DNA from: an uncultured bacterium
GTDB lineage: Bacteria > Patescibacteriota > Patescibacteriia > CAIQCM01
Length of the DNA stretch: 64,000 bases
Direction of reading: 5' to 3'
Assembly: GCA_963708045.1 (NCBI GenBank)
Contig: OY970181.1
Coordinates: forward strand, 779,537 to 843,536
The notes beneath the pieces were generated by a model. The model had not been told where the DNA came from and did not search any database. It saw only the letters and a program-made list of their open reading frames with translations. Positions within the stretch are counted from its first letter, which is position 1. The number at the start of each line of letters is the position of its first letter. The position numbers and the translations under genes are program-made. Shown piece by piece: positions 446 to 45,145 of this stretch.

Positions 446-455
446 AGTTACTTAT

Positions 456-1766: not shown

Positions 1767-2047
1767 ATTTACGCTTAATTCTTACAAGCCACACACTACC
1801 GCGCCTGTCCCGGGTGCCTAGTCCCAGAAGTAGGCAAGCTGTTGGTAACTAAAACCTTTACATAAAGGCTTTTTATGTTAGTATTCAAATGTCTCTACTC
1901 AACTTAAGCTCGGGCTTTTGCTCGAACCGGATAGCGCGCTTTAAGCGGCATCCGGATAAAACAACTCTTGCACTATCCAGTGCTTTAGTTGGGTAGAGAC
2001 ACCTCCGGGTGTCGCTTTTGTTTTATAAGCACATCCGAATCGAAGAT

Positions 2048-3742
2048 ATGCTTAATGAACAAACGACACAGGAGGCGTTGCTCGTAAAAATTGCCGCGCT
2101 TCAAAACGAAATTAAAAAGCTTAAGAAAAGAAAGAAGTACGGACTCGTGTGGGAAGAAAAACCTGAAGAAGTTGTTTTACAATGTCAAAATAATATTCCG
2201 GTTTTGAAAGAAGTCAAAACCCGAAAAATAATTGGCGGTTCGGGGAATAATATTTTGATAGAGGGCGATAATTATCACGCTCTTTCCGTTCTTAATTATA
2301 CGCACAAGAAAAGCATTGACCTTATTTATATTGACCCTCCGTATAATACGGGTGCTAAAAATTGGAAATATAATAATGACTATATTGATAAGGAAGACGC
2401 TTATCGTCATAGCAAATGGCTTTCGTTAATGTGCCATCGTATTAAGTTGGCCAAAAATTTGCTTAAAGATAATGGGGTGTTAGTTTGTGCCATTGATGAA
2501 AATGAACAAGCGCATTTAGGTGCGCTTATTGAAGAGATTTTTCCAACATACGATCAACATACGATAACAGTGGTGCATAATCCAAAAGGAGTCCAGGGAA
2601 CAAATTTTTCATATACCCACGAATACGCAATTTTTGTCGTACCAAGTAATAAAAAAACTATAGGGGATCGCTCTCTTGTCGAAGATGAGATTTATGTTTC
2701 AAATTTAAGAAATTGGGGGAATGAATCTGAACGAACAGATGCTAAGAATTGTTTTTATCCGATAGTGATATCAAGAGAAAAAATTGTAGGCTTTGGCAAT
2801 GTTGCACAAAATGAATTTCATCCCAAATCAGCAAATGAAAAACAAAAAGACGGCACCATTTGGGTTTGGCCGATTGATGAGAAAGGTGTTGAAAGAAAGT
2901 GGCGTTATGCACGCCAGAGCGTCGAAGAAATAAAAGATATACTTCAGATTAAAGAAACGAGGGGTGGTTTGATTCAGATAATGATTGCCAAAGATTATGG
3001 CACATATAAAACTGTTTGGAATGATAAGAAATATGATGCAAGCGAATATGGAACCAAACTACTTAGAGAAATAATTCCAAATTGCGATTTTGATTTTCCA
3101 AAATCACTTTATACAGTTTATGATTGTATTTTTGCGGTAGTTGGAGATCGTCTTCATGCAAATGTGCTTGATTTTTTTGCCGGGTCGGGAACGACTGGCC
3201 ACGCGGTTCTTGAATTGAATAAAAAGGATGGTGGCAATCGTCAATTTATTCTTTGCACTAATAACGAAAGCAATATTTGCGAAGAAGTAACATACGAACG
3301 CATCAAACGCGTTATCAAGGGATATAAGAACAAGAAGGGCGAAAAAGTTGATGGCCTTGGCGGTAATTTATCGTACTACAAAACAGATTTGGTTAATGTT
3401 GAAAAACTTCATCGCGTTTCGGACGACGCGAAAATCAAGATTACCCATCAAGCCGGTGAGATGATCGCGCTTCGCGAGGATACGCCGAATGAGGTTGAAA
3501 AAACCGATTGGTGGCAGGTCTTTAGCGGCGGCGGAAAAATAACGGCAATCTACTTTAAGGAAGATAAGCAAAAATTATCAGAGTTAGTTAAAAAACTTGA
3601 AAAGGAGCAAAAGCCGACGGTTCTCTATGTCTTTAGCTGGGGGAAGAATGAATATAAAAACGAATTCACCTCAAAGCTTATTCATATCGAGGATATTCCC
3701 GATCCAATTCTTGAGGTTTACAAAGAAATCAACCGCGCTTAA
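2048..3742 (+). CDS. mod: Type III restriction-modification Mod subunit (N6-adenine DNA methyltransferase)
   Basis: 'IDPPYNTG' (motif IV, DPPY) precedes 'DFFAGSGTTGHA' (motif I, FxGxG). This order is the beta-class arrangement of Type III Mod and other N4/N6 MTases. The gene lies immediately upstream of, and is translationally coupled to, a Res-like helicase. The ORF track starts at a GTG at 2009. The first ATG is at 2048. Confidence 0.85.
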   Translation: MLNEQTTQEALLVKIAALQNEIKKLKKRKKYGLVWEEKPEEVVLQCQNNIPVLKEVKTRKIIGGSGNNILIEGDNYHALSVLNYTHKKSIDLIYIDPPYNTGAKNWKYNNDYIDKEDAYRHSKWLSLMCHRIKLAKNLLKDNGVLVCAIDENEQAHLGALIEEIFPTYDQHTITVVHNPKGVQGTNFSYTHEYAIFVVPSNKKTIGDRSLVEDEIYVSNLRNWGNESERTDAKNCFYPIVISREKIVGFGNVAQNEFHPKSANEKQKDGTIWVWPIDEKGVERKWRYARQSVEEIKDILQIKETRGGLIQIMIAKDYGTYKTVWNDKKYDASEYGTKLLREIIPNCDFDFPKSLYTVYDCIFAVVGDRLHANVLDFFAGSGTTGHAVLELNKKDGGNRQFILCTNNESNICEEVTYERIKRVIKGYKNKKGEKVDGLGGNLSYYKTDLVNVEKLHRVSDDAKIKITHQAGEMIALREDTPNEVEKTDWWQVFSGGGKITAIYFKEDKQKLSELVKKLEKEQKPTVLYVFSWGKNEYKNEFTSKLIHIEDIPDPILEVYKEINRA

Positions 3743-3745
3743 ATT

Positions 3746-6076
3746 ATGTTTTCGCTAAAGCCATTTCAAGAACAGACGGTCGCCAAACTGCGTAACGAAT
3801 TTTTATCGTTATGGAAATCGCCACACGATAACATTTCGCTAGTTTTTAAGTCGCCAACGGGTTCGGGTAAGACAATTATGTTGGCGCAATTTTTGCGCGA
3901 TATGGTGGGAGATCCGCGCTTTCAAGGGAACGATGTAGCTTTTGTTTGGTTCTCGTTTAGCGAAGACTCATACGAACAAAGCAAAAAGAAGCTGTTTGAT
4001 TATTACGGTGGCGCTTCGGAGCTTGATTTGCTGGATTTGAATGACCTGTCGCGCGGCAAGCTTAACAAGAACAGCGTTTTCTTTATTAACTGGCAAAAGA
4101 TCAAGGGCAAATCAAAAGAAAGCCGAAAACTGCGACGCGACAATGAATGGGGTTTAACATTCGATAGTTTGATTGAAAAGACGCACGAAGACGGTCGCAA
4201 ACTTGTCGTTATCATTGACGAAGAACATATTGGTTCGGATACAGAGCTGGCTTTTGAGGTTATTAATGGACTTATCAAGCCGAAAATAACTATTCGCGTT
4301 TCCGCGACGCCGAAGTATATCCCTAACGCCGAGGAAATAGGAGAAAAGAAAGGCGGTTTTGTCCAAGCAAAGCGCGACGAAGTTATCGAGGCCGGCCTTA
4401 TTAAAGAGAAAATCGTCTTTCAAACGAAAGAAGATTTGGATTTGAAAGAATTTAAGGAAAAGGATCAAGACGAGATTTTACTTGAACTCGCATATCGCAA
4501 GAGAAATGAGACATCGGCCTTGTATAAAAAACTTGGAGTTTCCGTTAATCCGCTTGTGTTGATTCAGTTGCCGAATGACGACCAAGAGGTAAAAGGCACG
4601 ACGACGGTCAACAAACAAACAATTGTTATTGATTATTTGAAAAGCAAGGGCGTAGGGGAACACGAAATTGCGATTTGGCTTTCGAACGAGAAAATCAATC
4701 TCGAAGAAATAGAAAATAATACTTCGCCAATTTCGTTTTTGCTCTTTAAGCAAGCCGCGGCGACTGGTTGGGATTGTCCTCGCGCCAGCGTACTCGTGAT
4801 GTTCCGCGAGATCAAAAATCCGACCTTTGCCATTCAAACGGTTGGCCGCATTTTACGCATGCCTTTTGGGACGCATTTTGCCAAACCCGAACTCAATATC
4901 GGCTACCTCTACACGAACTATAAGCGTAATGAAGTGCTGGCGGAATACGCCAAGTTGAAGAACGAAAATCGTCCGGCCATTTATCCGAGCTACCGCAAAG
5001 AATCGGTAAAGCCGATTCAAATGGAATCCGTGTTCATGAGCCGAACAGACTATAACGATCTTGGGGACAGCTTCCAAGAAGCGTTTGGCAAAGTCGCAGA
5101 CAAGTATTTTGATATCGGTGAGCGCGATATGGCTTTAACCGCCATTAAGAAAATGGAAAAGGCTGGTTTGAATTTTTCGCCAAAGGTAACAAATGGGATT
5201 ATCGTTGGCGTTGAGATTGACGATTACGATAATTTTACCAACGAGCTATTAAACGAAGGTGGTAGCTACGACCAAGAAATGTCCGAATATGATCTTGAGC
5301 AGCTGTATAACCTTATTTGCTTTAAAGCTATATCAAAGCAAACCGATGAATTAAAGAAGTTTGCGCCTGAACGATCTTGGGGAAAGTTAAAAACTGCGCT
5401 TAATGTTTGGCTTATCAAACGCGCTGCGCAACCGCGTCAAATTATATATCGGGTAATCGTAAACGACTTGTTAAACGCAAACAGCATTTTGGCTCCGCTT
5501 ATCGGCTCCGCGCTCGCCGCATATCGTCCGATACGCGAACATGAGGTTAACAAGCGGTCGGAACGCTCGCGCCGTACCGAGGTTATCGAAATACCGAACG
5601 CATCGCTTTTCTATACCGATCAGTATCGCGTGATGAAAACCGAGCGCTGCGCCATGGAACCGTTCTATATTGAAAAGGATTATCAAGGTGAAGATAACGA
5701 GTCCGCGTTCATTAAATTTATCGATAACCATAAGCGGATTGAGTGGTGGTATAAGAATGGCGACTCGGGTAGCGAATTCTTTTCTATCCCATATTTCAAT
5801 CCCGAAGAAAACAAAGAAAAGCTGTTTTATCCAGACTGGATAATAAAAACCAAAGAGGGGATATGGATCATTGATACTAAAGGCGGCGTTACGGCTGAAC
5901 TCATTGATACTAAGTATAAGGCCGAAGCGCTTCAGGTGTGGCTTAAGGGTAAGAAAGGTTTTGGTGGCGGCATAGCCGTTCAAGACGGTCCCAATGGTTG
6001 GAAAATAAATAATAATGCTAATTATTCATATACCAAATCCCTTAGTGGCTGGAATAATTTAAACGACAGTCTATAA
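3746..6076 (+). CDS. res: Type III restriction enzyme Res subunit (SF2 helicase-nuclease)
   Basis: Helicase motif I 'SPTGSGKT' and DEAH-type motif II 'VIIDEEH'. A large C-terminal region follows. The start lies 4 nt after the mod stop. Confidence 0.85.
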   Translation: MFSLKPFQEQTVAKLRNEFLSLWKSPHDNISLVFKSPTGSGKTIMLAQFLRDMVGDPRFQGNDVAFVWFSFSEDSYEQSKKKLFDYYGGASELDLLDLNDLSRGKLNKNSVFFINWQKIKGKSKESRKLRRDNEWGLTFDSLIEKTHEDGRKLVVIIDEEHIGSDTELAFEVINGLIKPKITIRVSATPKYIPNAEEIGEKKGGFVQAKRDEVIEAGLIKEKIVFQTKEDLDLKEFKEKDQDEILLELAYRKRNETSALYKKLGVSVNPLVLIQLPNDDQEVKGTTTVNKQTIVIDYLKSKGVGEHEIAIWLSNEKINLEEIENNTSPISFLLFKQAAATGWDCPRASVLVMFREIKNPTFAIQTVGRILRMPFGTHFAKPELNIGYLYTNYKRNEVLAEYAKLKNENRPAIYPSYRKESVKPIQMESVFMSRTDYNDLGDSFQEAFGKVADKYFDIGERDMALTAIKKMEKAGLNFSPKVTNGIIVGVEIDDYDNFTNELLNEGGSYDQEMSEYDLEQLYNLICFKAISKQTDELKKFAPERSWGKLKTALNVWLIKRAAQPRQIIYRVIVNDLLNANSILAPLIGSALAAYRPIREHEVNKRSERSRRTEVIEIPNASLFYTDQYRVMKTERCAMEPFYIEKDYQGEDNESAFIKFIDNHKRIEWWYKNGDSGSEFFSIPYFNPEENKEKLFYPDWIIKTKEGIWIIDTKGGVTAELIDTKYKAEALQVWLKGKKGFGGGIAVQDGPNGWKINNNANYSYTKSLSGWNNLNDSL

Positions 6077-6133
6077 AGCCCTGTTGATTGAATTACCCAA
6101 ACAAATAATATAAATTAATTCGTAAAAATAATT

Positions 6134-6592
6134 ATGAATAACAATGCCAATAATCAAGAAGTCTGGGATAAAATCCTAGGCAAAGACGAGAAAGTTAAAC
6201 ACAGTTTTACAATCGGCCCACGGTATCTAAAATACAATCTTATCGCCGGTGCGATAATCTGCGTGCCGTTCGTTTTCGCGTACGGTTTTGGCGTCGTCTT
6301 GTTCTTGATTATTCTGTTCAACTACGGTTTCTACGCTAAGAAGTTGAACATCTACGCCTTTACTGATAAGCGCGTATTAATCCACAAGGGCTGGCTTTCA
6401 ACACACATGACTAGCATCGACTATTCAAAAATTACCGATGTCCATGTTCGGGAACAATTCTTGGATAAAATCGTGTACCATACGGGCGACTTGGCCATTA
6501 ATACGGCCGGAAGTGGACGATTAGAAGTCTTCCTAAGACACATCGAAAACCCGTACGAAGTGAAGAAGATTTTAGACGAACTTAAGGGCTAA
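6134..6592 (+). CDS. membrane protein with bacterial PH (bPH_2/YdbT-like, DUF304) domain
   Basis: Two predicted TM helices ('LIAGAIICVPFVFAYGFGVVLFLIILF') followed by 'YAFTDKRVLIHKGWLSTHMTSIDYSKITDVHV', which is typical of the YdbS/YdbT PH-domain family. Confidence 0.55.
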   Translation: MNNNANNQEVWDKILGKDEKVKHSFTIGPRYLKYNLIAGAIICVPFVFAYGFGVVLFLIILFNYGFYAKKLNIYAFTDKRVLIHKGWLSTHMTSIDYSKITDVHVREQFLDKIVYHTGDLAINTAGSGRLEVFLRHIENPYEVKKILDELKG

Positions 6593-6607
6593 CTCGAGGC
6601 TAATAAT

Positions 6608-6644
6608 AAAAACGCCGTCCATACTTCGCGAACGGCGTTTTTGA
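6608..6644. terminator. bidirectional rho-independent terminator-like hairpin between convergent genes
   Basis: 'aaaaacgccgt' / 'acggcgttttt' form an 8-9 bp GC-rich stem around a 13-nt loop. An A-run lies upstream and a T-run downstream. It sits between the + gene ending at 6592 and the - gene ending at 6646. Confidence 0.55.
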
Positions 6645-6645
6645 T

Positions 6646-8139
6646 TTAGATAAAGTAGACTCGCGGAACGATCGGAGGATTTTCCAAGAGACTATGGACG
6701 ACATTGGCGAAAGCGTCGGCAAGGTCATCGTGTTTTTCAACGCCGAAATGAACGATCTGTTCGATTAGACGTTCCGCCCCTTCGCGCGGGAAGAGAATTT
6801 TTCCGGTCTTAATCATGTTGGCCGTAAGCACCAGCCTACTGCGTTTGTCTTGGACTCCGGGCCTAATCGTCAGCACGCCATCAATGCCTTCATATTTAAG
6901 CTGTTGGGGCAATGCTTTTTGGTAGGCGACATCCTCGATGATCAGTTTGGGGTAATCGTAATCCTCCTTGTAGCTGTTATATAGCGTTTTACACATATCG
7001 ACCGTTTCTGGGAAGGTCATGCGCTTATTTATGATTTTAGGCAAAATATATATGCGGTATCCGTCTTCGAGTTCAAAGAGGACTCCGGGCACCATGGCCG
7101 TATAATCAGCCGCATCACTTGTTGATATGGCTGGATCAATGCCAATCCGTACCTCAAGATGCGACCGGTATCCTTGGAATAGGACAAGTCTTTCGGGAAT
7201 CTTGTCGTAGTATTGAATCCATTCGCGTTGGATGGCTTGGTCTTCGGCCGGAACGATGTTTAGGAGATACTCACGTTGCCAAGCGAATTCGTTGGCGGCT
7301 TTGCTTTTCTCTTCTTCAATTTCGGTCATTGTCGGATATTTGCCCGGCCAAATTATTGCGCCGTCGGTAATTAGGGGATAGGACTTGAAGACGCCGTTAA
7401 TCTTTTTCTTGTCGATGTCCTCTTTAAGGCGCATGAGGAGTGAGTCCTCGTGCAAGAGGTTGCCTATGATAACGAGCCGCGTATTGCGGTCGCCAGCCGG
7501 AACCACTTCTCCAGTCAGCCATTGATAGGTCTTGTTCCGACCCTCGCGTGTTTTGGTGGAGGCCAAGTCTTCAAGGTCATCGCCGATAATAAGGTCGGGA
7601 CGGTGTTGATTATGGCGTAGGCCACGGACGCTTTGTTCGGTGGAAACGGCAGTTATACGGGCATGCAAACTGGAGAAAACGAGCGACGATGCGCCCCATT
7701 CGTTATTTTCTTCTTGGAACGGTCCAAGGTCGTTTTTTAGAAGCGAATTGCTTTCAAGCTCGCGGCGCAGGTTCATCATGTGTTGTTTAGCTTGCGCTTG
7801 CGTTTGGCAAAGGATTAGCACAAACTTTTTCTTTTGCTCGCCAAGAATCGCCCAAACCGGGTATGAGGTCGTGAAGATTGTCAACTTAGCCGAACCGCGA
7901 AACGCCACAATAAACAAGTTTTTAATGTCTTGCCTTTCGCTAAGGCGAAATAGCTCGCGCTGGAATTCTGCGGTAGCATATTTCACATAATGAGCGAAGT
8001 AGAAGTGAAAGAACATGAAATGACTCTGGCGGGTGATGGCTGCGCGAACGGTTCGGTCGCGGAACATTTCGTTTGCCAACTCCGGCGGCATTCCCTTGTT
8101 TTCTTCTTGCGTCGCGTTTTTCTCGATAAAGTTTTCCAT
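6646..8139 (-). CDS. phage terminase large subunit-like protein
   Basis: C-terminal RNaseH-like nuclease motifs typical of TerL: 'GIDPAISTSDAADYTAMV' and a terminal 'HDDLADAF'. An N-terminal ATPase-like region precedes them. The start lies directly downstream of a TerS-like gene. The track start is a TTG at 8199. The first ATG at 8139 leaves a 5-nt gap to the TerS stop. Confidence 0.65.
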   Translation of the reverse strand: MENFIEKNATQEENKGMPPELANEMFRDRTVRAAITRQSHFMFFHFYFAHYVKYATAEFQRELFRLSERQDIKNLFIVAFRGSAKLTIFTTSYPVWAILGEQKKKFVLILCQTQAQAKQHMMNLRRELESNSLLKNDLGPFQEENNEWGASSLVFSSLHARITAVSTEQSVRGLRHNQHRPDLIIGDDLEDLASTKTREGRNKTYQWLTGEVVPAGDRNTRLVIIGNLLHEDSLLMRLKEDIDKKKINGVFKSYPLITDGAIIWPGKYPTMTEIEEEKSKAANEFAWQREYLLNIVPAEDQAIQREWIQYYDKIPERLVLFQGYRSHLEVRIGIDPAISTSDAADYTAMVPGVLFELEDGYRIYILPKIINKRMTFPETVDMCKTLYNSYKEDYDYPKLIIEDVAYQKALPQQLKYEGIDGVLTIRPGVQDKRSRLVLTANMIKTGKILFPREGAERLIEQIVHFGVEKHDDLADAFANVVHSLLENPPIVPRVYFI

Positions 8140-8143
8140 ATAT

Positions 8144-8620
8144 TTATTCAACGGATTTATTATTAAGATTTTCAGGTTGTTTAGAATTTTGGTCGGCAAC
8201 AGTCGGTTCCGTGGGCTGTCTTATGGTCATGGAGGCAAGCCGGAGTGCTTCTTTAACGGTCGCTTCTTGCTCCTCAGTTAGTTCTTCTTGCGGACGAGCC
8301 GCCGCTACTTCCAGTCGGTCGCGGAAGCGTGGACTTCTTTTCCTAAGCCAGAAACTGATTGCGTTAAAGTTTTGTTCTTTTATCGCGGTAATGAGCTTGG
8401 ACTCGGCCATGTCGCTCACCAGTTCGTCGCCCTCGTCGATGGCCGCATCGCAGGCCGTTGCAAAATGCGGATCTTCTTTGCGCCAGCGGTAATATGTGGC
8501 GCGGCTAACACTTGTCTTTTCGCACGAGAGCTGGACGATCGGCGTTTTCTTAAGCTGATCGATGAGTGCGATCTTTTGTTCTTTTTGTCGCTCCAAGGCG
8601 GCTTCGTTAGCGTTTTCCAT
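8144..8620 (-). CDS. phage terminase small subunit-like HTH protein
   Basis: 'CEKTSVSRATYYRWRKEDPHFATACDAAIDE...AISFWLRKRSPRFRD' matches the HTH-containing terminase small-subunit family pattern. Position immediately upstream of TerL. Confidence 0.6.
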   Translation of the reverse strand: MENANEAALERQKEQKIALIDQLKKTPIVQLSCEKTSVSRATYYRWRKEDPHFATACDAAIDEGDELVSDMAESKLITAIKEQNFNAISFWLRKRSPRFRDRLEVAAARPQEELTEEQEATVKEALRLASMTIRQPTEPTVADQNSKQPENLNNKSVE

Positions 8621-9404
8621 AGATGCTGGTCAATTTAACGGCTTTAATTCCTGTATGGTTCTCAATGCGCCTGATGATGGTTCGGCAGTACTCAATATCC
8701 GCCTCGACCATATAACAGCGTCGTTTGGTATCCTCACAGGCGATCATTGTCGAACCAGAACCGCCAAAGCCGTCGTAGACGATTTCATTGACCTTGGTGC
8801 TGTTTAGGATTAGACGGCGTAGCAACCCGACCGGCTTCATCGTTGGATGAAGCTTGCTGGCACTTGGTTTAGGATAAACAAGAATCGACTTGTCCTTTGC
8901 TTTGTGGAATTTATGCCGTCCGAACCAGCCATAGGCGATAAGTTCGTGTTGGGGTAGGTAGTCCATCCGTCCGATTACGGCGTGCGTCTTTATCCAGATC
9001 AGTAGTTGCGTAAACGCGTAGCCGGCTTCGCGCATCGCCTCGCGAAGCGCGAAGATCATCTTGTCGGAGTTGAAGATATAGACGCTGTTGTGACTCGCGA
9101 GAAACGGACGAACAGCCATAAGCCAGTCTTTGGTAAAGGCGCGGTATTCGTCGTCGGTCTGTTCGTGGTCGTTTAGGATTATTTTTTCTTTACCAAGTTT
9201 TTGCTTGAATCCGGACTTGCTTTCAACGTACCCGACGGCGTACGGCGGATCGATAACGACGGCGGCAATCTTGTCTTTTCCGATCAATGTTGCGACCGAT
9301 GACGCGTCAAGCGAACTACCGCACAAGAGGCGGTGTTCGCCGATGGCGAAAATATCGCCTTGATTAACCGATACGGACGGCTTTGTTTTTTGTGAGGGCT
9401 TCAT
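8607..9404 (-). CDS. DNA methyltransferase (N4/N6 class, DNA_methylase_N-4/N-6 domain)
   Basis: 'VVIDPPYAVGY' (DPPY motif IV) near the N-terminus and 'FGGSGSTMIACEDTKRRCYMVE' (motif I) near the C-terminus. ATG start. Confidence 0.8.
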   Translation of the reverse strand: MKPSQKTKPSVSVNQGDIFAIGEHRLLCGSSLDASSVATLIGKDKIAAVVIDPPYAVGYVESKSGFKQKLGKEKIILNDHEQTDDEYRAFTKDWLMAVRPFLASHNSVYIFNSDKMIFALREAMREAGYAFTQLLIWIKTHAVIGRMDYLPQHELIAYGWFGRHKFHKAKDKSILVYPKPSASKLHPTMKPVGLLRRLILNSTKVNEIVYDGFGGSGSTMIACEDTKRRCYMVEADIEYCRTIIRRIENHTGIKAVKLTSIYGKR

Positions 9405-10659
9405 ATCTTTTTATGATTAGGGTACAAAAGACGGGATCGATTTCACACAGAAAGGCGCGGCGCTTCATCTGCTCGCAACAGGAAAGAGTAGAGCCAGAAC
9501 CGCCGAATAAGTCCAAGACAGTATCGCCGGGTTTGGTACAACGGCGCATGGCTTTTTCATGAAGTGTCGTTGGTTTTTCCGTCGGGTGCTCGTAGTCTTG
9601 CGCCGGAAGACGTTTGACGAGCCAGATGTTAAAGAGATCGATAATGTCGTCGATGGCGCGATTACCACTCGCGACTTCTTTATTCAACACCTCGTTAAGG
9701 TTTTGTATGCGTGGTACAAGGAACGGTTTGCCGCGTGTGCCATAGACGCAAGGCTCGTATGCCTTGTTGAACGCGACTTGCGGAGTCATATTAAAGTTAT
9801 TTTTGACCCAAAGGCAGACGCGTCGATTAACAATGCCTAGTTCCTCGTATAAACTCTGAACCAATCCGATACTCGCTTCGTCGCACCAGAAGAAAACATG
9901 CGTATTCGGTTTTGCGACCGCAAGACCATTTTCCATCGCTCGCTTTAAGAATAGGCGATAGTCAGCATGCGTCTTTTTATCGTTTGTTTCACCGCCGTAT
10001 TTTCCTGATGTGCTGATGCCTTTGCTGTAATCAAGGGAAATGTTATACGGAGGGTCGCTGTAGATCATGTCGATTTGGTTTTTGCCTACCAATCGTTTAA
10101 TCAACTTCGGGTCGGTTGAGTCGGAACACAGCAAGGTATGGCTTCCCAGCCGATACATTTCGTCCAGCTTAACGGTTGGTTTTTTAATCGCGGCAAGTTC
10201 CTTTTCAGTATCAAAATCGTCGTCCTCGGCTTCAAGCGAATCGTCCCAGACATTACCCAAGTCGATATCGTCGAAACCAGCATCAAGAAGCATTTCGATA
10301 TCAAACTCCTTGAGCATCTCAAAGTCCCATGATCCGTGAGCGCGATTTAGCGTTAGATTCAACGCCTTTTCTTTTTCGATATTCGGTATGTTCACGAAGA
10401 CCGCCGGAATTTCGGTGATGCCAAGTTCCTTTGCGCAGGCAACCCGCATATGGCCACCGATTAGGACGCCTTTCCGCGCAGGCGCGGAATTGACCAGCAC
10501 AGGATCAACTAACCCGTACTTTAAGATGCTTTCTTTTAACGTCGCCTTTTCGGACTCTGACCATTTTCTGGGGTTATAGATGGCCGGTTGTAACGATCCG
10601 ATCGGGATATATTGAACGGCGATTTTTGTGTCGTCGTGAGTTAGTATATTTTTTGGCAT
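9364..10659 (-). CDS. ParB-like nuclease domain fused to DNA methyltransferase (phage-type ParB-MTase)
   Basis: N-terminal ParB/Srx-like segment 'IPIGSLQPAIYNPRKW...GGHMRVACAKELG'. It is followed by 'MIYSDPPYNISLDY' and 'DLFGGSGSTLSCCEQMKRRAFLCE' MTase motifs. The track start (10725) is a TTG. The first ATG is at 10659. Confidence 0.8.
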   Translation of the reverse strand: MPKNILTHDDTKIAVQYIPIGSLQPAIYNPRKWSESEKATLKESILKYGLVDPVLVNSAPARKGVLIGGHMRVACAKELGITEIPAVFVNIPNIEKEKALNLTLNRAHGSWDFEMLKEFDIEMLLDAGFDDIDLGNVWDDSLEAEDDDFDTEKELAAIKKPTVKLDEMYRLGSHTLLCSDSTDPKLIKRLVGKNQIDMIYSDPPYNISLDYSKGISTSGKYGGETNDKKTHADYRLFLKRAMENGLAVAKPNTHVFFWCDEASIGLVQSLYEELGIVNRRVCLWVKNNFNMTPQVAFNKAYEPCVYGTRGKPFLVPRIQNLNEVLNKEVASGNRAIDDIIDLFNIWLVKRLPAQDYEHPTEKPTTLHEKAMRRCTKPGDTVLDLFGGSGSTLSCCEQMKRRAFLCEIDPVFCTLIIKRYEALTKNKAVRIG

Positions 10660-10701
10660 ATTTTTAGAAGAGATATGAAGAGTAAGCACAGAAATAAAAA
10701 T

Positions 10702-10763
10702 GCCCACCTCGCGGAGATGAGTCAAAATCTAAAAAGACTTTGGTTAATCTCTGCGAAGTGGGC
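10702..10763 (-). terminator. long stem-loop (17-bp imperfect stem) followed by a T-run on the minus strand
   Basis: 'gcccacctcgcggagat' (10702-10718) pairs with 'atctctgcgaagtgggc' (10747-10763) with 2 mismatches. On the minus strand the stem is followed by 'attttta ttt'. It lies between the 149-aa minus-strand ORF and the ParB-MTase gene. Confidence 0.35.
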
Positions 10764-10874
10764 ACGACCGAGGCAAAGCCTCTTCGGCGCGTTTACGCGC
10801 CTTCTACCGCTCGCGGACGGAATTAGCTATACGCCACAATTTGTTACCGAGGAAAAGAACTTAACTCTATTTAA

Positions 10875-11324
10875 TCACATGATGCCCTGTCGTTTCAAGG
10901 CCGCATACTTTTCAATCGCGTCTTTACCTAGAAGTATCGGAAGGTTTTGCGGGATAAATAGACGAACTTTTTTCCCGTTTTTTTCTGCCTTTTCCATCAC
11001 TTCCTTTAGTCCCTCGTCAAAAGGAAATACGAAGGTGAATGTTCTCCCGTCGCTATCTTTCTTTGGCCTAATCGCATTGTTCACATATGTCCTCCCAGGT
11101 CTCCCGGAACGGATTGAACTTTCCAGCCCGCGCGAGAATAATTTCGGGTTACAGACTGGATTAGTATGCAGAGTAATATCAGTTATGAAGATGTGTACTT
11201 CTTTTTCGGTCTCAGTTACGGTAGGACCACTAATTTTATGGTTATCCTTTTGGGGGATTGGGGTCGGGTTTCCCATAGGTATTACGTTCGCGGATTTTTC
11301 CGCCACGATCATGAATAAATACAT
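10875..11324 (-). CDS. hypothetical protein (149 aa)
   Basis: Minus-strand ORF co-oriented with its neighbours. Non-repetitive composition. It overlaps the DUF2188 gene 3' end, so the start is uncertain. The competing + strand ORF 10675..11460 looks non-coding. Confidence 0.3.
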   Translation of the reverse strand: MYLFMIVAEKSANVIPMGNPTPIPQKDNHKISGPTVTETEKEVHIFITDITLHTNPVCNPKLFSRGLESSIRSGRPGRTYVNNAIRPKKDSDGRTFTFVFPFDEGLKEVMEKAEKNGKKVRLFIPQNLPILLGKDAIEKYAALKRQGIM

Positions 11325-11463
11325 CGCCGCCTTGGTTTATCGCGATGTCTTTGGCGATCTCAAACGCTTCTGCCTGAGTATCGGCGACTTTAGTGTCGCG
11401 CGTAGCACCTTCTTTTCGCACCGCCCATCCATCGTCGCGTTGAACCACATGTTGGTTTGACAT
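11242..11463 (-). CDS. DUF2188-family small protein
   Basis: 'NQHVVQRDDGWAVRKEGATRDTKVADTQAEAFEIAKDIAINQGGDVFIHDRGGKIRERNTYGKPDPNPPKG' resembles the conserved DUF2188 pattern (HVVP..DGWAV..EG..R..K.F.TK.EA...A..IA.NQ..EL.IH..DG.I....SYG.DP.PPKD). This is matched from memory, not from a search. Confidence 0.65.
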   Translation of the reverse strand: MSNQHVVQRDDGWAVRKEGATRDTKVADTQAEAFEIAKDIAINQGGDVFIHDRGGKIRERNTYGKPDPNPPKG

Positions 11464-11464
11464 A

Positions 11465-11782
11465 TCAGAGAGTTTTTAGCTGTTCGTTATATTTAGGACT
11501 GAAGCGCCTAATTTCGTTTGCCTCAAGTGCGATTGCTTCAGTAGCTGAACCACAGACCGTGAAATTGAAGTGTGTGACATCTGGCCAGTAATCATCCGTA
11601 AGGTGCTGAAGCAAGCGTCCGCGAATTCCGCCATCGGCAACCGATCTCCCGATGTAGTAAGGGACGACGCCGCTACCATCTCGAATCGGAATTCCGCAGT
11701 AGTAGATGCCGATGGCGCTGGAGTTCCAGTCGGTTAAGGTCTGTTTGTTGTATAAATATGGTCCTTTATAGTGATTTCCCAT
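11465..11782 (-). CDS. GIY-YIG nuclease domain protein
   Basis: 'GIYYCG...PYYIGRS...RLLQH...EANEI' gives the GIY / YIG / R / E order of the GIY-YIG catalytic core. Confidence 0.7.
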   Translation of the reverse strand: MGNHYKGPYLYNKQTLTDWNSSAIGIYYCGIPIRDGSGVVPYYIGRSVADGGIRGRLLQHLTDDYWPDVTHFNFTVCGSATEAIALEANEIRRFSPKYNEQLKTL

Positions 11783-12019
11783 AGAAATGGGGTTAATGTT
11801 AGTCCAACCCCATTTCTACTCGGAGACAAGCGATGTTGTTTAAGAGTAATTTCCGGGGGTGGTATTGGTTATATACTGACTTCGCCCATAAGACCCTTGA
11901 TTGTTTTTCAAGGCTTTGATATTTGGCTAGTTATTATAGATAAAACGTCTTTTCGCTGTGCAACGGCGATTAGGCGGTGGGTAATATTAGAATATATCCT
12001 AGAATGACGCAATATGTTC

Positions 12020-12048
12020 TTGACCTAACTTATCCACAGTGCTATGAT
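12020..12048 (+). promoter_or_regulatory. sigma70-like promoter TTGACC-N17-TATGAT; the predicted TSS lies only a few nt before the ATG (leaderless-type)
   Basis: 'ttgacc' at 12020-12025, an exact 17-nt spacer, 'tatgat' at 12043-12048, and the ATG at 12058. A small palindrome 'ttagctaa' lies between the -10 and the ATG. Confidence 0.5.
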
Positions 12049-12057
12049 TAGCTAATT

Positions 12058-12663
12058 ATGAACAACCTCCACCGAACGCAGTCTAAGCTCTTGGAACTCC
12101 TTAAGGAGAACCAGACAGAGCCATTGACCATGATGGAGCTGAAGGAAGAAATGAGCCTCTCGTCCACGAGCGTGGTTTTTCACCATATACGCCAACTAGA
12201 GAAGAAAGGTCTTTTACGTCGTAACCCGGCAAACCCTAACGACTATCAGGTACTCTCGGAAGACGATAAAGATAAAAAGATTGCTTATTTAAATTTATAC
12301 GGTTTGGCCCAATGCGGTCCTCATGGAACCATCTTAGAAGATACGCCGGTTGATCGAATTCCTATTTCAACACAGATACTTGGTTTTTCGTCCACCGATG
12401 CGTTTTTGGTTCGCGCACGTGGTAACTCGATGGTGCCGAAAATATACAATAACGATCTTGTTATCGTAAAGAAGACTGAAAATATAAACGATGGCGATGT
12501 TGCCGTATGTGTAAATGAAGGTGAGGCTCTAATTAAGAAGGTAAGAAAGATAGACTCAAAAATATTTTTATTTTCTGAAAATCACGAATTTGAATCTTTT
12601 CCAGCGAGCGATGATTTCCGCGTTGTTGGCGTGGTAAGAGGTGTGCTTTCCTACACGATCTAA
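12058..12663 (+). CDS. LexA/CI-like transcriptional repressor (HTH + S24 peptidase domain)
   Basis: N-terminal winged-HTH 'MMELKEEMSLSSTSVVFHHIRQLEKKGLL'. The C-terminal S24 domain has 'GNSMVP' (Ser nucleophile) and a downstream Lys ('LIKKV'). Confidence 0.8.
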   Translation: MNNLHRTQSKLLELLKENQTEPLTMMELKEEMSLSSTSVVFHHIRQLEKKGLLRRNPANPNDYQVLSEDDKDKKIAYLNLYGLAQCGPHGTILEDTPVDRIPISTQILGFSSTDAFLVRARGNSMVPKIYNNDLVIVKKTENINDGDVAVCVNEGEALIKKVRKIDSKIFLFSENHEFESFPASDDFRVVGVVRGVLSYTI

Positions 12664-12676
12664 TAAATTTGTATTT

Positions 12677-13336
12677 ATGTCCTTTGAAAAACCGATTTCG
12701 AAAAAGATAGGGCGTAATGATCCTTGTTTTTGCGAATCGGGCAAGAAATATAAAAAATGTTGTTGGTTAGACGGAATTAAAATTACATCGACAGAAATAG
12801 GTAAGCATGGCCCGCCGCAGTCAATCGAAAAATATGTAGTCGATTTTTGTAAGACTATTTCCAACGATGATCCATTTTACATGGGGGTAGAGTCAGGAGC
12901 CGATGATGAACCGCTGGATTGTTTTAATAACGTTCGAAAATATATAACAAAAAGTGGCGGGGACATGATGCTGGGCTGGCAAATATGGGAATGGTATGGA
13001 TTTATGATTGAGGCAGAGTTCCATGCAGTTTGGAAAACCACCGACGGTGAATTAAAAGATGTGACGCCGAAACCTATACCTTTCGATCGGGTTTTGTTTT
13101 TGCCAGACGCGTCTCTGGAATACGATGAAACTCAAATTAATAATAAACGTTTCGCTCTATCTAAAGATATTCGCGTAACGGAATACATTAACCTGTGCGA
13201 AGAGGAATTTAAAATTAAAAATTTAGGCGAGAGAGCTAAGAAATACGATGGCCTCAATTTTTCTGCAGACGAGATTAAGCGTCTAGAAGAAATATTTCAG
13301 CGTCGTATTGAAATTGAACATGAATTGGTACAATAA
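12677..13336 (+). CDS. SEC-C motif (SecA C-terminal zinc-binding-like) domain protein
   Basis: 'RNDPCFCESGKKYKKCC' is the SEC-C metal-binding motif. The track start (12641) overlaps the upstream gene. The ATG at 12677 ('MSFEKPI') is preferred. Confidence 0.55.
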   Translation: MSFEKPISKKIGRNDPCFCESGKKYKKCCWLDGIKITSTEIGKHGPPQSIEKYVVDFCKTISNDDPFYMGVESGADDEPLDCFNNVRKYITKSGGDMMLGWQIWEWYGFMIEAEFHAVWKTTDGELKDVTPKPIPFDRVLFLPDASLEYDETQINNKRFALSKDIRVTEYINLCEEEFKIKNLGERAKKYDGLNFSADEIKRLEEIFQRRIEIEHELVQ

Positions 13337-13814
13337 AGTCTTAAAAGTTGTAGTCAAGGAACAGGTAACGATAGCGACATTCACAGTTACCGCGTTGTCC
13401 GGCGTACTCACATGGCGGTATGGCTTCCATCATGCTTTCGCATGGCAAAATATTACGCCGATATCCGCACCGGAGCTATTCGAGCGTGTGATTTACAGCG
13501 CATTGGTATTCGTGAGTATCGGGGCTTTTCTTTACTGGGCTAAGTTTTATAAGTGGTTGCATGGGGTAATCGTTATTGGTCTCGAAGACCGATGGCTCTA
13601 CAGGAAAGTAAAGGCGATTATCTGGGGTATCTTGATGCTGGTCATGTATTTTTGGATCGTTCCGACCGTCGTAAATATCTTAAATTTTGTGGTTTCACTA
13701 ATATACAACCTCTTAAACTTTGCGATATATCTTTTCCCGCCAATTGGTTGTGCTGTTATAGTCACCGGTTTGGCGGGTATATTCGTTCTACGTAAGGGGA
13801 ATCTGCACGATTAA
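13308..13814 (+). CDS. hypothetical polytopic membrane protein
   Basis: Three to four hydrophobic helices. No motif. An alternative start lies at 13320. Confidence 0.4.
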   Translation: MKLNMNWYNKVLKVVVKEQVTIATFTVTALSGVLTWRYGFHHAFAWQNITPISAPELFERVIYSALVFVSIGAFLYWAKFYKWLHGVIVIGLEDRWLYRKVKAIIWGILMLVMYFWIVPTVVNILNFVVSLIYNLLNFAIYLFPPIGCAVIVTGLAGIFVLRKGNLHD

Positions 13815-13825
13815 GATATAAGATT

Positions 13826-14545
13826 ATGAAATATTTGAAGAAATTGCACCTATTATGTTTTTCAATAGAAGAAATAAAACAACTTCTAAGTGATGAATTT
13901 AAAAGGATCGTATTTGATGGTCTCGGTAAACAACAGATTGACTTAACCGCTTTTCGCAAAAACCGCAAGGCCATGGAAGATTTTGTTTCCGATTTGGTGA
14001 GAAAGAACAGTAAACGAAAAGAATTCGTCAAACTGTTTTATGCTACTGATTTGGCTGATTCCGTTTATGTGTCTAATGATACCTTGGTCTGTTTTGAATT
14101 AAAGAAAACCATACAACCAAATTCTATTCCAATCCCCAATAATTATCAGGAATTGATTGATATCTTAGAGGAGAATACGCCCGTTGATTTTGCCATCTCA
14201 AACAAAGAGGGGCTTAGGCAATTTCAGTTGAAACAATATAAAGATTTATTAGAAACCGAAAAAGTTGCCGAATTCATAAAGAAAAAGCTCAAGACTTACG
14301 GAAACCTTGGACAAATTAATTTGTTGGTCGTGCTTCAGGGGCGCGATAACGATGGTTCCACAATTGTTCCTGTTAATATTGATTTTGATAAAGTTTATAA
14401 CCACTTAAAAGATGGAAAATTTAAAATAGCCGCGGAAGTCTTAATCGCAATGAACGACCGAAATGAGGAACAGACATTCACTCAAGTTTATCCAAAATTG
14501 AATCGATTCAGAAAAAAGATTTCAATGTCTAGCTCGCGGTGGTGA
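13826..14545 (+). CDS. hypothetical protein (239 aa)
   Basis: Clean ORF with no competitors. No recognisable motif. Confidence 0.45.
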   Translation: MKYLKKLHLLCFSIEEIKQLLSDEFKRIVFDGLGKQQIDLTAFRKNRKAMEDFVSDLVRKNSKRKEFVKLFYATDLADSVYVSNDTLVCFELKKTIQPNSIPIPNNYQELIDILEENTPVDFAISNKEGLRQFQLKQYKDLLETEKVAEFIKKKLKTYGNLGQINLLVVLQGRDNDGSTIVPVNIDFDKVYNHLKDGKFKIAAEVLIAMNDRNEEQTFTQVYPKLNRFRKKISMSSSRW

Positions 14546-14601
14546 AGTTGGGAATAATAAAAATGTTCAAGGTGTAATTAGCTAGATTCTATTAAAAACA
14601 T

Positions 14602-15156
14602 ATGTTCAAAAAAAGAATAATAAAGTATCGGAATATTCTAAAAAAATTACCTCTAATAATCCCTCTTTTTGCAATTGCAATAACACTGATTATAAATATT
14701 TGGAATTCCTATGCGAGTTTTAATGGGAGATTAAAGGTTTTACTTAGTGCTACGGTTTATAATAATGGCATTTTCAATACCGTGGAGTCGAGTATAAAAG
14801 ATGGAAGCTTCAATCAGAAAAATTTTTCTAGTAGTTTTAATATAGATATCTATAAAAATAATCTAGACTTATTAGGTTCGTTACGGGGTGATTGTATCGA
14901 GACATATTTTCAACTAATCGCGCGCATGGATGGTATTAATCGTAAGAATGATAAACTTTGGGATTTATATATACAAGAAGGTCTTATTTTTGAAAGTAAT
15001 CAATGGAAAAATACAAAAGAACGTCAAGAAGGTTTGCAAAATGATTTAAAAAAAGAAGTACTCGAGGTTGTTTCTCTCTTTAATACGATTCACAAAAATT
15101 CAAACTGTGCATTTCGTACAAAAAACTTCCTAGGAATATTTTCCCCGGGATTATAA
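14602..15156 (+). CDS. hypothetical protein with N-terminal TM anchor (184 aa)
   Basis: N-terminal 'LPLIIPLFAIAITLIINIW' hydrophobic segment. No motif. Confidence 0.45.
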   Translation: MFKKRIIKYRNILKKLPLIIPLFAIAITLIINIWNSYASFNGRLKVLLSATVYNNGIFNTVESSIKDGSFNQKNFSSSFNIDIYKNNLDLLGSLRGDCIETYFQLIARMDGINRKNDKLWDLYIQEGLIFESNQWKNTKERQEGLQNDLKKEVLEVVSLFNTIHKNSNCAFRTKNFLGIFSPGL

Positions 15157-15222: not shown

Positions 15223-16545
15223 ATGCTATTCATAACAATGCATTTTAAAATTCATATGCCCGGCCACATTGATACCGATATCCAATATTGCCTCTACGCG
15301 AGAAAAAGTACCGAATCGGAAGAACGCCAATCGCTATCAATAGAATCCCAGATTAAAGAAATGACCCGGGTCGCAGAACGTGATCGGTTGGTTATTAAAG
15401 AAATCAAACGCGAAAGCCGGTCGGCAAAATCACACGGCGGTCGTCAGGTTTTTAACGATCTCATCAACGAAATTAGCCAAGGTAAATTTACCGGCATCGT
15501 CGCTTGGTCGCCGGATCGGTTAAGTCGCAATGCAGGTGATTTAGGTGTCTTGGTAGATTTGATGGATGCTGGAAAGCTTTTAGAAATTCGGACTTTTAAC
15601 CAAAGATTTACAAATTCGCCAAACGAAAAGTTTTTACTCATGATCTTGGGTAGCCAGGCCAAACTTGAGAATGATAATCGGAGCGTTAACGTAAAGCGGG
15701 GGATGCGGGCGCGGGTTGAGATGGGGTTATGGCCGGGAGTGTCACCGCTGGGCTATCTTAATCAATACCGAACCGATAAGAAGTGCGAGATTATAGTTGA
15801 TGAAGCTCGTGCACCAATAATCAAGCAGATGTTCAAGAAAGTCGCCGACGAAAAATGGACAACGCGCGATATACATAAATGGCTTAAGGATACCGGTTTT
15901 AAAACTCGTGGAGATAAACCCCTCGCTTATAGCGGTGTGCAGCGAATGCTGACGAACTCTTTTTACTACGGAAGATTTGAATACCCAAGGAACAGCGGCA
16001 AATGGCATACCGGTAAACACGAGCCGATAATTACCAAAGATTTATTCGAACGGACACAACAAAGATACCGCCGCCTTTCTTATAAAAGTAAAGTAAGGGA
16101 ATTTTCATTCGTTCGGCTTTTTACCTGCGGCCTTTGCGGATCTGGAATATCCGCCAGCGAAAAGTTTAAAAATCTCAGCGACGGCACGGTTGCGCGTTAT
16201 ATTTATTACAACTGCAACCTCGGTAAAGATAGGTTTTGTAAAAATACATCTATTAGGGAGGAGGAGCTAATTAAGGAGTTGATTAAGGTTGTCGATACTG
16301 CCGAAATTGACGAACTTGGTATCCGTCATAAATTTGAAAATGAAGTTGAACGATTTGGAAAATTCAACAATTACATTCTCGGAAAACCTACTGATCTAAA
16401 GCCCGAAGAAATTGACATAAATATCCGCGCGTACGCCAAGTATGTCCTCATGGACGGATCAAAAAGCGAAAAACGAGAGCTGCTCGGCCACCTGCGAAGT
16501 CGCTTGGTTTATACGCACAAAAGGTTTAAGCTACTCCCGTCTTAA
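15223..16545 (+). CDS. large serine recombinase, paralog of the 456..1766 gene
   Basis: 'YCLYARKSTESEERQSLSIESQ', 'DRLSRN', and zinc ribbon 'CGLCGSG...YYNCNLGKDRFC'. It aligns by eye along its whole length with the first recombinase (roughly half identical). Orientation is inverted relative to the first. Confidence 0.9.
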   Translation: MLFITMHFKIHMPGHIDTDIQYCLYARKSTESEERQSLSIESQIKEMTRVAERDRLVIKEIKRESRSAKSHGGRQVFNDLINEISQGKFTGIVAWSPDRLSRNAGDLGVLVDLMDAGKLLEIRTFNQRFTNSPNEKFLLMILGSQAKLENDNRSVNVKRGMRARVEMGLWPGVSPLGYLNQYRTDKKCEIIVDEARAPIIKQMFKKVADEKWTTRDIHKWLKDTGFKTRGDKPLAYSGVQRMLTNSFYYGRFEYPRNSGKWHTGKHEPIITKDLFERTQQRYRRLSYKSKVREFSFVRLFTCGLCGSGISASEKFKNLSDGTVARYIYYNCNLGKDRFCKNTSIREEELIKELIKVVDTAEIDELGIRHKFENEVERFGKFNNYILGKPTDLKPEEIDINIRAYAKYVLMDGSKSEKRELLGHLRSRLVYTHKRFKLLPS

Positions 16546-16555
16546 GATCACATAT

Positions 16556-22381: not shown

Positions 22382-22382
22382 T

Positions 22383-22682: not shown

Positions 22683-22691
22683 TCCAAGTCT

Positions 22692-23669: not shown

Positions 23670-23756
23670 CAAATACTGGACTTGACCCCATTATTTTGGC
23701 GGTTATAGAATATCGGAGTATGCTTGAAGAAAAATCGTACCTAATTTTATTTCTTT

Positions 23757-45095: not shown

Positions 45096-45145
45096 CATAA
45101 ACGCACTCATCCCGACGACCATCGGGGCGGTTAATCTTTATAAGT

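Follow-up and report, generated by a model that had tools for sequence, protein, structure and literature searches.

Within a 64-kb stretch of contig OY970181.1 from an uncultured Patescibacteriota bacterium (hereafter the window, with positions counted from its first letter), four minus-strand genes at 6646-10659 encode a ParB-methyltransferase fusion, a second DNA methyltransferase (MTase), a small terminase (TerS) and a large terminase (TerL), in that order. An earlier reading made from the letters alone (the sequence-only reading) had proposed this operon, and profile matches, gene spacing and the TerL fold bear it out. Comparison with related loci indicates that the locus very probably belongs to a conserved family of capsid-less islands. 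The four genes are probably the core of this widespread, satellite-like family, which would bring its own terminase and borrow capsids. The operon and the features between it and the end of the island are listed below, with the best profile matches in brackets.

9364-10659, minus strand: ParB_N-MTase fusion, the core methyltransferase of the island family (ParB_N 2.4e-9, N6_N4_Mtase 4e-31, phrog_498 1e-90)
8607-9404, minus strand: second N6/N4 DNA methyltransferase (N6_N4_Mtase 2.4e-29)
8144-8620, minus strand: TerS-like small terminase, 158 amino acids (aa), with a TerS-type helix-turn-helix (HTH) (phrog_4044 1e-10, phrog_309 1.5e-7)
6646-8139, minus strand: TerL, 497 aa (phrog_38 2e-75; Terminase_6C above cut-off)
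6609-6643: bidirectional intrinsic terminator between the bPH_2 gene and TerL (8-bp G+C stem between an A-run and a T-run)
6134-6592, plus strand: cargo, bPH_2 membrane protein (Pfam bPH_2 5e-13)
3746-6076, plus strand: cargo, res of a Type III restriction-modification system (PADLOC REase_III 3e-16)
2009-3742, plus strand: cargo, mod of the same Type III system (PADLOC MTase_III 4e-71)
456-1766, minus strand: large serine recombinase SR1, island integrase and island end (Resolvase, Recombinase and Zn_ribbon_recom)

The packaging operon and its downstream region

The four packaging genes overlap or lie 4 nt apart, the spacing expected of a single predicted operon. TerL is identified as a large terminase, with an ATPase and an RNaseH-like nuclease, by phrog_38, by Terminase_6C and by a Foldseek search of its AlphaFold model (pLDDT 73) against the Protein Data Bank (PDB). 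All 37 of the best structural matches are phage large terminases or packaging ATPases, and the fold matches, at 1e-17 to 1e-10, include PhiV-1 (1.9e-17), D6E, T4 gp17, T7 and HK97. A TerL sequence profile found no match among PDB sequences. The sequence-only reading had left its terminase assignments to profile searches, and there TerL stands, with phrog_38 and a Terminase_6C score above the cut-off. The outcome for TerS is split: phrog_4044 and phrog_309 match, and Pfam HTH_Tnp_1_2 falls slightly below its cut-off (26.8 versus 27.9 bits). TerS has 503 homologues, some of which carry the NCBI name 'phBC6A51 family helix-turn-helix protein', and its model (pLDDT 78) consists of an N-terminal HTH, a long helix or helical core and a disordered tail.

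The operon ends at a terminator, which the sequence-only reading had placed at 6608-6644. It is real: its 8-bp stem folds as RNA with a free energy of -18.1 kcal/mol (z -3.97), none of 200 shuffled sequences folds equally well, and it is common to TerL and the convergent bPH_2 gene at 6134-6592. That reading had also remarked on the lack of portal and capsid genes where they would be expected after TerL, and we find the same. In their place come, in order, the bPH_2 gene, the opposite-strand Type III restriction-modification pair and the large serine recombinase, and the larger open reading frames (ORFs) scanned in the rest of the window likewise yielded neither a portal nor a capsid gene. A DNA similarity search of window positions 6000-12000 against GenBank phages gave no match, and an exact look-up of the TerL sequence in the assembly index returned no record. 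The repressor and recombinases said to lie nearby are also there, as a LexA-like S24 protein at 12058-12663 (plus strand) and large serine recombinases at 456-1766 (SR1) and 15223-16545 (SR2). The best NCBIfam match of SR1 is CcrB-like (2e-33; 115.7 bits against a cut-off of 900), a likeness that we read as holding at superfamily level only.

A recurring layout in related loci

Related loci were drawn from species-representative genomes (80), from IMG/VR (80) and by exact protein look-up (the others), and were compared by tblastn, ORF calling and all-against-all clustering. The set holds 103 non-redundant loci with the TerL family, nearly all from metagenome-assembled genomes (MAGs) of bacteria of the candidate phyla radiation (CPR, or Patescibacteria). 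Their TerL is 35-91% identical to that of the window, nearly always more than 47%. Relatives at 54-91% identity occur in at least 586 species-representative genomes, nearly all labelled as CPR lineages. Homologues at 67-91% identity number in the thousands; the named ones belong to Paceibacteria, Taylorbacteria, Parcubacteria and other CPR groups and include contigs of 380-650 kb.

Followed in the direction of TerL, these loci have a common layout: a left-end site, reverse-strand cargo, a repressor, a divergent operon, an optional cargo slot and a large serine recombinase. The divergent operon consists of a small variable ORF, the ParB-MTase, sometimes a second MTase, TerS and TerL. A co-oriented MTase precedes TerL in 85 of the 86 loci with enough sequence, and TerS sits between the two; the second MTase (about 257 aa) is found in only a subset of islands, for example L003, L169, L028 and L044. 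The repressor is LexA-like and divergently placed in 40 loci, and elsewhere an HTH_3 plus M78 pair or an HTH_17 protein is found.

What follows TerL could be read in the 73 loci with at least 3 kb of downstream sequence. In 30 of them the next gene is a same-strand large serine recombinase, in 36 it lies on the reverse strand, and in the remaining 7 it is a plus-strand ORF of under 400 aa; a portal-sized co-oriented ORF directly after TerL is found in none of the 73. Of the 53 loci with sufficient sequence, 47 have a co-oriented recombinase within 10 kb after TerL, and in 20 of these it begins less than 300 nt from TerL; the cargo between the two genes spans 0-8 kb. In the relatives the operon thus continues past TerL, directly or across the cargo slot, into a co-oriented large serine recombinase. 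By contrast, in the IMG/VR contig L109 a TerL of the same family (38% identity, phrog_38) is followed directly by a 751-aa portal (phrog_2662, 5.5e-130), and behind more distant phage TerLs come ORFs of 650-800 aa and series of head and structural genes.

Some loci depart from this layout. TerL is truncated or missing in a few relatives (L105-L108 and L230); in L230, viewed in motif orientation, the left-end motif described below lies at 5323 and is followed by MTase, TerS and, from about 8905, the recombinase, with no TerL between the last two. A sub-clade of the islands, represented by L093 (1620-4813), L097 (3035-6318) and L098 (3809-6938), has a tandem pair of TerL paralogues that share about 56% identity and both keep Walker A and B intact.

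Island ends and size

The homology between the window and its relative L168 ends at window position 454, at the SR1 stop codon, and none is found beyond. Four loci that are about 88-90% identical and have different flanks (L065, L071, L074 and L084) have DNA in common from the left edge to the recombinase stop, which gives a minimal element of about 8.6 kb. Judged from where such alignments break off, the recombinase stop codon is the right edge of the island. No conserved nucleotide motif was found after this stop codon, only k-mers of the coding sequence. The left edge is a composite site, with a 17-mer at its centre, an inverted GT(T/G)ACA pair 15-25 nt after it, and a hairpin and CTCGAGC-type repeats before it; no Rfam family matches at the coordinates of the left-end region. 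From the 17-mer to the recombinase stop the islands measure 6.2-17.5 kb, with a median of 9.25 kb (33 loci).

A tRNA was considered as the integration target and rejected: tRNAs are often nearby, but none consistently abuts the island. In L169 the 17-mer lies 110 nt from a host tRNA-Val, at the island edge. Eight otherwise divergent loci have a minus-strand tRNA-Gln 5-9 kb beyond the recombinase (L065 18618, L074 17780, L084 19598, L063 20864, L080 20510, L001 20930, L011 21322 and L042 15214), which suggests a common chromosomal neighbourhood or an array of islands. In five further loci (L060, L067, L068, L078 and L085) a recombinase precedes the 17-mer of a following island, or the recombinase is itself followed by another LexA/f5 start (f5 is a small-ORF family that occupies the position between repressor and MTase in 25 loci); this arrangement fits tandemly integrated islands.

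The ends bear on the possibility that the terminase serves a host-domesticated system similar to a gene transfer agent (GTA), whose capsid, portal and tail genes would be encoded at another place in the genome. Across CPR classes TerL shows conservation on a par with that of the housekeeping enzyme GlgA, no structural genes are linked to it, and split GTA loci are known in Alphaproteobacteria. GTAs, however, are structural gene clusters under host control and have no integrase and no mobile ends, whereas the islands have their own recombinase, defined ends, differing flanks and, in some MAGs, more than one copy, which are traits of a mobile element and not of a fixed host locus; nor was a structural gene found in the 64-kb window. 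We consider a GTA-like system highly improbable.

A 17-mer common to islands and phages

The 17-mer at the far (left) end of most islands is invariant, AGTGACAAAAGTGACAC, and holds two GTGACA repeats one helical turn apart. Allowing up to two mismatches, it was found in 52 of the loci scanned, from which 47 non-redundant sites were aligned. It always lies on the TerL strand and, in every island whose map reaches both, beyond the repressor-side cargo. It is present in 38 of 57 family members, so that about one-third of them, like the window, are without it. A metagenome scan yielded at least 120 exact hits, and most of the 80 that were examined look like island left ends.

The same 17-mer occurs in phages. 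An exact search of IMG/VR returned 14 contigs, of which two are islands and several could be chance matches. Six of the 14 belong to one low-GC phage lineage (L173-L177, L184 and L185, with L175 counted apart) in which the 17-mer overlies the opening codons of a TerS homologue; the gene order there is PAPS-reductase-like, ParB, x, TerS, TerL. In the unrelated phage L175 it lies at the start of a ParB-like gene, and the order is endolysin, then ParB, glucosyltransferase, TerS (phrog_4044), TerL, portal (phrog_2662) and head morphogenesis. The junction between lysis and packaging genes is the usual place of cos and pac sites. In every case the 17-mer has the same orientation relative to terS.

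This setting suggests that the 17-mer may be a packaging site. Because it stands at phage packaging junctions, with a constant orientation relative to terS, it is a good candidate for the site recognized by the islands' TerS family, or by the ParB domain. Separately, the pair of PAPS-reductase-like and ParB genes of L173-L177 parallels the ParB-MTase arrangement of the islands; we take it to resemble an IbrA/IbrB-type pair.

Selection, co-inheritance and the state of the window's copy

Selection was gauged by comparing the window with its closest relatives, L166 and L168 (TerL 89-91% identical). The ratio of nonsynonymous to synonymous substitution rates (dN/dS) is 0.02-0.07 for TerL (0.04-0.07 for the window's gene against L166 and L168) and 0.05-0.09 for TerS; the MTase gives about 0.06 and the recombinase 0.016. 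These values indicate strong purifying selection on TerL and TerS. All four window ORFs are intact. Across an alignment of 22 TerL sequences, the Walker A and B and nuclease acidic residues are reported as invariant, save one residue of the window that is described below. Pairwise identity correlates with that of TerL at rho 0.76 for TerS, 0.60 for the recombinase and 0.47 for the MTase, but only weakly for LexA (0.24). It follows that the packaging genes and the recombinase are passed on together as one unit, whereas the regulators are exchanged.

The window's own copy has two peculiarities. Its TerL has the Walker A sequence GSAKLT, with leucine at residue 86 (codon TTG, 7882-7884), where all 21 aligned relatives have GSAKST; the difference is a single TCG-to-TTG transition. 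The Walker A serine of P-loop ATPases coordinates Mg2+. In addition, neither AGTGACAAAAGTGACAC nor the looser pattern GTKACA-N4-GTKACA occurs anywhere in the 64 kb of the window, and no remnant of the left-end region was found there. Because of Ser86Leu and the absent 17-mer, this copy may be disabled; as far as its sequence tells, it may be non-functional, immobilized or rearranged. Alternatively, the Leu86 codon may be an assembly error.

The sequence-only reading had offered two accounts of the missing structural genes, a decayed prophage or a satellite-like element that retains packaging functions. Under the first, structural genes would have been lost by deletion or by insertion of the restriction-modification cassette, with the packaging genes on their way to becoming pseudogenes. 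The phage-typical gene order, the Walker A leucine, the absence of the family's end motif from the window and the truncated or missing TerL of a few relatives all speak for decay. Against it, the same capsid-less layout, recombinase included, recurs in about 100 loci and many CPR lineages; the four ORFs are intact, with dN/dS of 0.02-0.09; cargo sits in defined slots and not at random breakpoints; and independent events would not repeatedly end at the TerL stop codon. The lack of capsid, portal, tail and lysis genes is thus a conserved feature of the family and not decay. Decay does not account for the family and is very unlikely overall, although recent damage to the window's copy, with its Ser86Leu and missing 17-mer, would be a possible remnant of that idea. 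The satellite-like element is the better of the two accounts, and the comparative data extend it.

Regulators, cargo slots and defence genes

On the far side of the packaging operon the window carries the following features.

10875-11324, minus strand: 149-aa ORF at the variable small-ORF position, between repressor and MTase (found by tblastn in 9 related loci)
11465-11782, minus strand: 105-aa ORF with weak likeness to GIY-YIG and the UvrC N-terminus (tblastn matches in 2 loci)
11783-12057: control region from which the packaging operon and the repressor operon diverge
12058-12663, plus strand: LexA-like S24 autocleaving repressor (Peptidase_S24 7e-21, LexA_DNA_bind)
12641-15156, plus strand: repressor-side cargo, a SEC-C-motif protein and three unknown ORFs
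15223-16545, plus strand: second large serine recombinase, SR2, 49% identical to SR1

The repressor scores 103.7 bits against TIGR00498 (cut-off 110.95) and retains the Cys-Gly cleavage site and the Ser/Lys dyad, with its serine in GNSM and its lysine in ALIKK. These intact autocleavage residues, together with the divergent placement of the repressor, fit SOS-type induction and not constitutive expression. In the control region there are promoter-like sites at 11962-11933 (minus strand) and 12020-12048 (plus strand), which are consensus matches only, and nothing convincing in the way of operator-like repeats. The C-terminus of the 149-aa ORF resembles, by eye, that of family f5. The plus strand of the same DNA holds a 261-aa ORF, which is probably not a real gene. 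Searches of Pfam and PHROG returned nothing for the variable small ORFs. The 105-aa ORF matches NCBIfam uvrC at 2e-4, far under the cut-off.

Cargo is exchanged at defined places. The loci L169 and L170 have identical TerL and cores that are 99.8% identical, and beside LexA the first carries SMODS and SAVED genes (CBASS-like, 3235-6904) and the second ThsB-TIR (Thoeris-like, 182-3597). Judged from this pair, the repressor-side slot behaves as a hotspot for exchange of defence genes. The cargo that follows TerL, ahead of the recombinase, consists of Type III or Type I restriction-modification systems, nucleases, and P-type ATPases or a copper oxidase. Type III cargo also fills this slot in L168, and homologues of the mod and res genes (families f20 and f34) occur at L042, L074, L075, L077 and L087. 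In L010 this slot also holds a LOOT RNA (Rfam RF03000, 12282-12409, minus strand; 82.8 bits, E 8.6e-14).

A repurposed, non-packaging terminase is the most serious rival. The operon would then be, for example, a restriction-modification-like anti-phage system on a recombinase-mobilized defence island, with the methylase shielding the cell's own DNA and TerS/TerL, as translocase and nuclease, turned on foreign or concatemeric phage DNA. The one or two MTases ahead of TerS and TerL in those 85 of 86 loci resemble the pairing of modification and restriction subunits, the islands are rich in defence cargo and have neither replication nor capsid genes, two TerL paralogues in tandem, their motifs intact, would be odd for a packaging motor, and L230 keeps MTase, TerS and recombinase without TerL. 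PADLOC v2, however, matches the cargo to defence models (Type III restriction-modification within the island and a PD-T7-5-like gene beyond SR2) and not the core: TerL has no match, and the ParB-MTase matches generic MTase models only. Moreover, the order ParB/MTase-TerS-TerL is normal in real phages such as L175 and L176; a divergent autocleavable repressor is what prophage and satellite lytic modules have, whereas defence genes are usually constitutive; and phage packaging modules carry a motif identical to that of the island end. On balance we think a repurposed terminase unlikely.

A proposed life cycle

For the preferred reading, an island that packages itself with its own terminase into borrowed capsids, the following course can be proposed. 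DNA damage would trigger autocleavage of the repressor and so release the divergent operon. Once this is expressed, the methyltransferases would modify DNA, and the recombinase would excise the island, or packaging would proceed in situ. TerS would recognize the repeats of the end site, and TerL would cut the DNA and pump it into procapsids that a helper phage, co-infecting or already resident, would supply. On arrival in another cell, the island would be integrated by its recombinase. After excision the end site would lie just beyond the recombinase gene, so a cut there would give a full-length linear copy. A start in situ at the end site, running toward TerL, would package the whole island and then the adjoining chromosome, as in lateral transduction.

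The sequence comparisons show the gene identities, the recurring layout, the island boundaries, the purifying selection and the 17-mer held in common with phages; of the proposed course, induction, recognition of the 17-mer by TerS, packaging and the existence of a helper are what we infer. We give the satellite packaging mechanism close to an even chance. More tentatively, and with slightly less confidence than an even chance would express, the islands may form a very widespread class of CPR satellites, with TerS and TerL, one or two methyltransferases, an SOS-type repressor and a serine recombinase but no capsid, portal or replication genes, whose invariant GTGACA-repeat end site would serve to load them into foreign procapsids.

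Several observations weigh against this interpretation. No helper phage was identified and no evidence of encapsidation was found; the listing of several islands as viral genomes in IMG/VR reflects predicted viral origin and is not such evidence. The nearest bona fide phage TerL is only 38% identical, with no phage of matching motor or portal in hand, and no circular contigs or terminal repeats were seen among the island loci tested. The island ORFs tested gave no Pfam, PHROG or NCBIfam match to replication families, a result from which a novel initiator could escape. The TerS assignment is built on moderate profile scores: its fold search is topped by the small terminases of phBC6A51, NV1, PaP3 and Sf6, none of them significant (E of 1 or more), and the TerS call therefore stands on profile matches, gene position and co-variation with TerL. 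Recognition-helix residues are common to island and phage TerS, which we judge weak evidence, as such residues are generic to the HTH class whatever the DNA target. For the window's copy, the Walker A substitution and the missing 17-mer speak against current activity. Finally, five metagenome contigs (L186, L213, L249, L264 and L265) have no terminase nearby but carry the 17-mer ahead of a homologous serine recombinase gene, at a distance of about 150 nt (743 nt in L264). These may be minimal elements or a different arrangement, and they mean that the 17-mer may serve recombination, or regulation of the recombinase, rather than packaging.

The same contigs, along with the want of a helper or replication module, favour an island mobilized by its recombinase and spread without capsids, for example by natural transformation, which has been reported for CPR bacteria; the terminase would then be a packaging decoy or competitor directed at phages. 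Satellites mobilized by competence are described in the accessible part of PMC13376191. Capsid-free spread leaves unexplained, however, why a strongly constrained ATPase-nuclease TerL is kept with its cognate TerS and why the end motif matches that of phage packaging modules, and we hold it to be quite unlikely.

Comparison with known elements

The closest parallels to a self-packaging island are phage-inducible chromosomal islands (PICIs) and their capsid-forming kin (cf-PICIs). Like the islands, cf-PICIs are integrative and carry TerS and TerL. They are inducible, package their own DNA independently of the helper terminase and obtain the remaining virion from the helper (PMC10085698), as the islands would do on the preferred reading. 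Unlike the islands, they also encode capsid, protease, portal, head-tail adaptor or connector and primase-replicase (PMC10085698). SatelliteFinder treats the capsid, portal and head-tail adaptor or connector as cf-PICI core components (PMC10085698), and these genes are absent from the window and the related loci. The islands differ further in their large serine recombinase integrase, one or two core DNA methyltransferases and CPR hosts. PICIs with their own TerS, including the SaPIs of Staphylococcus aureus, resemble the islands in size (6-18 kb for the islands), in a repressor-controlled divergent operon, in defence cargo and in having no structural genes; their TerS redirects packaging to the island, and the islands likewise carry TerS. 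PICIs need the helper TerL, however, and have as core genes int, a regulator, primase-replicase and capsid-size redirection genes (PMC10085698), whereas the islands have their own TerL, MTases and no recognizable replication or capsid-remodelling gene. The PICI feature of an integrase with a master repressor over a divergent operon is present, with a serine recombinase and not the usual tyrosine integrase. The islands would work most like PICIs and cf-PICIs, yet do not qualify as members of either class: they have no primase-replicase and no capsid, portal or adaptor genes, they use a serine and not a tyrosine integrase, and MTases are among their core genes.

Other elements are further away. 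The PICI-like elements (PLEs) of Vibrio cholerae and the marine virion-encapsidated integrative mobile elements (VEIMEs) integrate by large serine recombinases, and some carry TerS homologues and defence genes (PMC6002521, in its accessible part, and PMC9618062). They differ in their unrelated gene sets and in hosts from the Proteobacteria or marine plankton, and no TerL is reported for them in the same part of PMC6002521 or in PMC9618062. Staphylococcal cassette chromosome (SCC) elements such as SCCmec are likewise cargo islands with serine recombinases, and the best NCBIfam match of the island recombinases is CcrB, at about 1e-33 and far under the cut-off. For SCC elements the integration site is orfX/rlmH, and neither terminase nor methyltransferase genes are known from their core. 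Phage modules in which ParB (with an MTase or PAPS-reductase) precedes TerS and TerL share with the islands the gene order, a homologous TerS (phrog_4044) and the identical 17-mer (L173-L177, L175); they continue into portal and head genes (L175, L109), whereas the islands continue into cargo and the recombinase.

The architecture of the islands is well supported by these sequence comparisons, and the mechanism is plausible. The literature searched held no prior description of such an element in CPR bacteria; its coverage was incomplete, so this is no proof of novelty. CPR prophages are described there as rare or newly reported, and no satellite is described. The island family is apparently undescribed.

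Other features of the window

It is uncertain whether SR2 belongs to the window's island. It occupies the place expected for the family's left-end motif. SR2 is co-directional with the LexA operon and is followed by a 336-aa ORF that matches the PD-T7-5 and PD-T7-1 defence models (2e-19); this segment, 15223-17452, may be a second island adjoining the first, or a rearrangement.

The glycogen synthase GlgA of the window is matched best, among named sequences, by those of Wolfe-, Giovannoni- and Sungbacteria and the Parcubacteria group. Elsewhere the window has genes for large surface proteins, pilin-like proteins and an [FeFe]-hydrogenase, as in CPR genomes. From this gene content we conclude that the window is a chromosomal segment of a Parcubacteria-type CPR bacterium. 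An IS200/IS605-type Y1 transposase (20498-21178, Y1_Tnp 1.7e-16) lies within an apparent long stretch of accessory genes. A small redox or metalloid-resistance cassette at 22076-24245 consists of adjacent genes for a regulator of the ArsR family, a thioredoxin-like protein, a permease of the ArsP type and a NUDIX hydrolase. The region 29000-47000 has a G+C content of 52-55%, against about 40% elsewhere, and encodes proteins of 1450, 1586 and 1023 aa (fn3), along with peptidoglycan-binding and M23 peptidase proteins; it looks like a compositionally distinct surface-protein region. A NuoF-like flavoprotein adjoins the [FeFe]-hydrogenase large subunit at 56185-58898, in an otherwise CPR-looking genome.

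Implications for CPR bacteria

Little is known of the mobile elements and phages of CPR bacteria. If the interpretation holds, the islands would be the first satellites described in them and would represent a new hijacking strategy, to bring the motor and steal the shell. A satellite with a terminase only would bridge PICIs, which have TerS only, and cf-PICIs, which have terminase and capsid, and it would imply that the terminase docks on the portals of unrelated helper phages, which is testable. For annotation, the family is a caution that the presence of TerL does not mean a prophage. The 17-mer and the compact serine recombinase offer experimental handles and possibly genetic tools for CPR bacteria. 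The islands would also be a major vehicle for defence genes in reduced CPR genomes: a conserved and abundant island with restriction-modification, metal-resistance, Thoeris and CBASS-like genes on board would account for the movement of defence genes between such tiny genomes.

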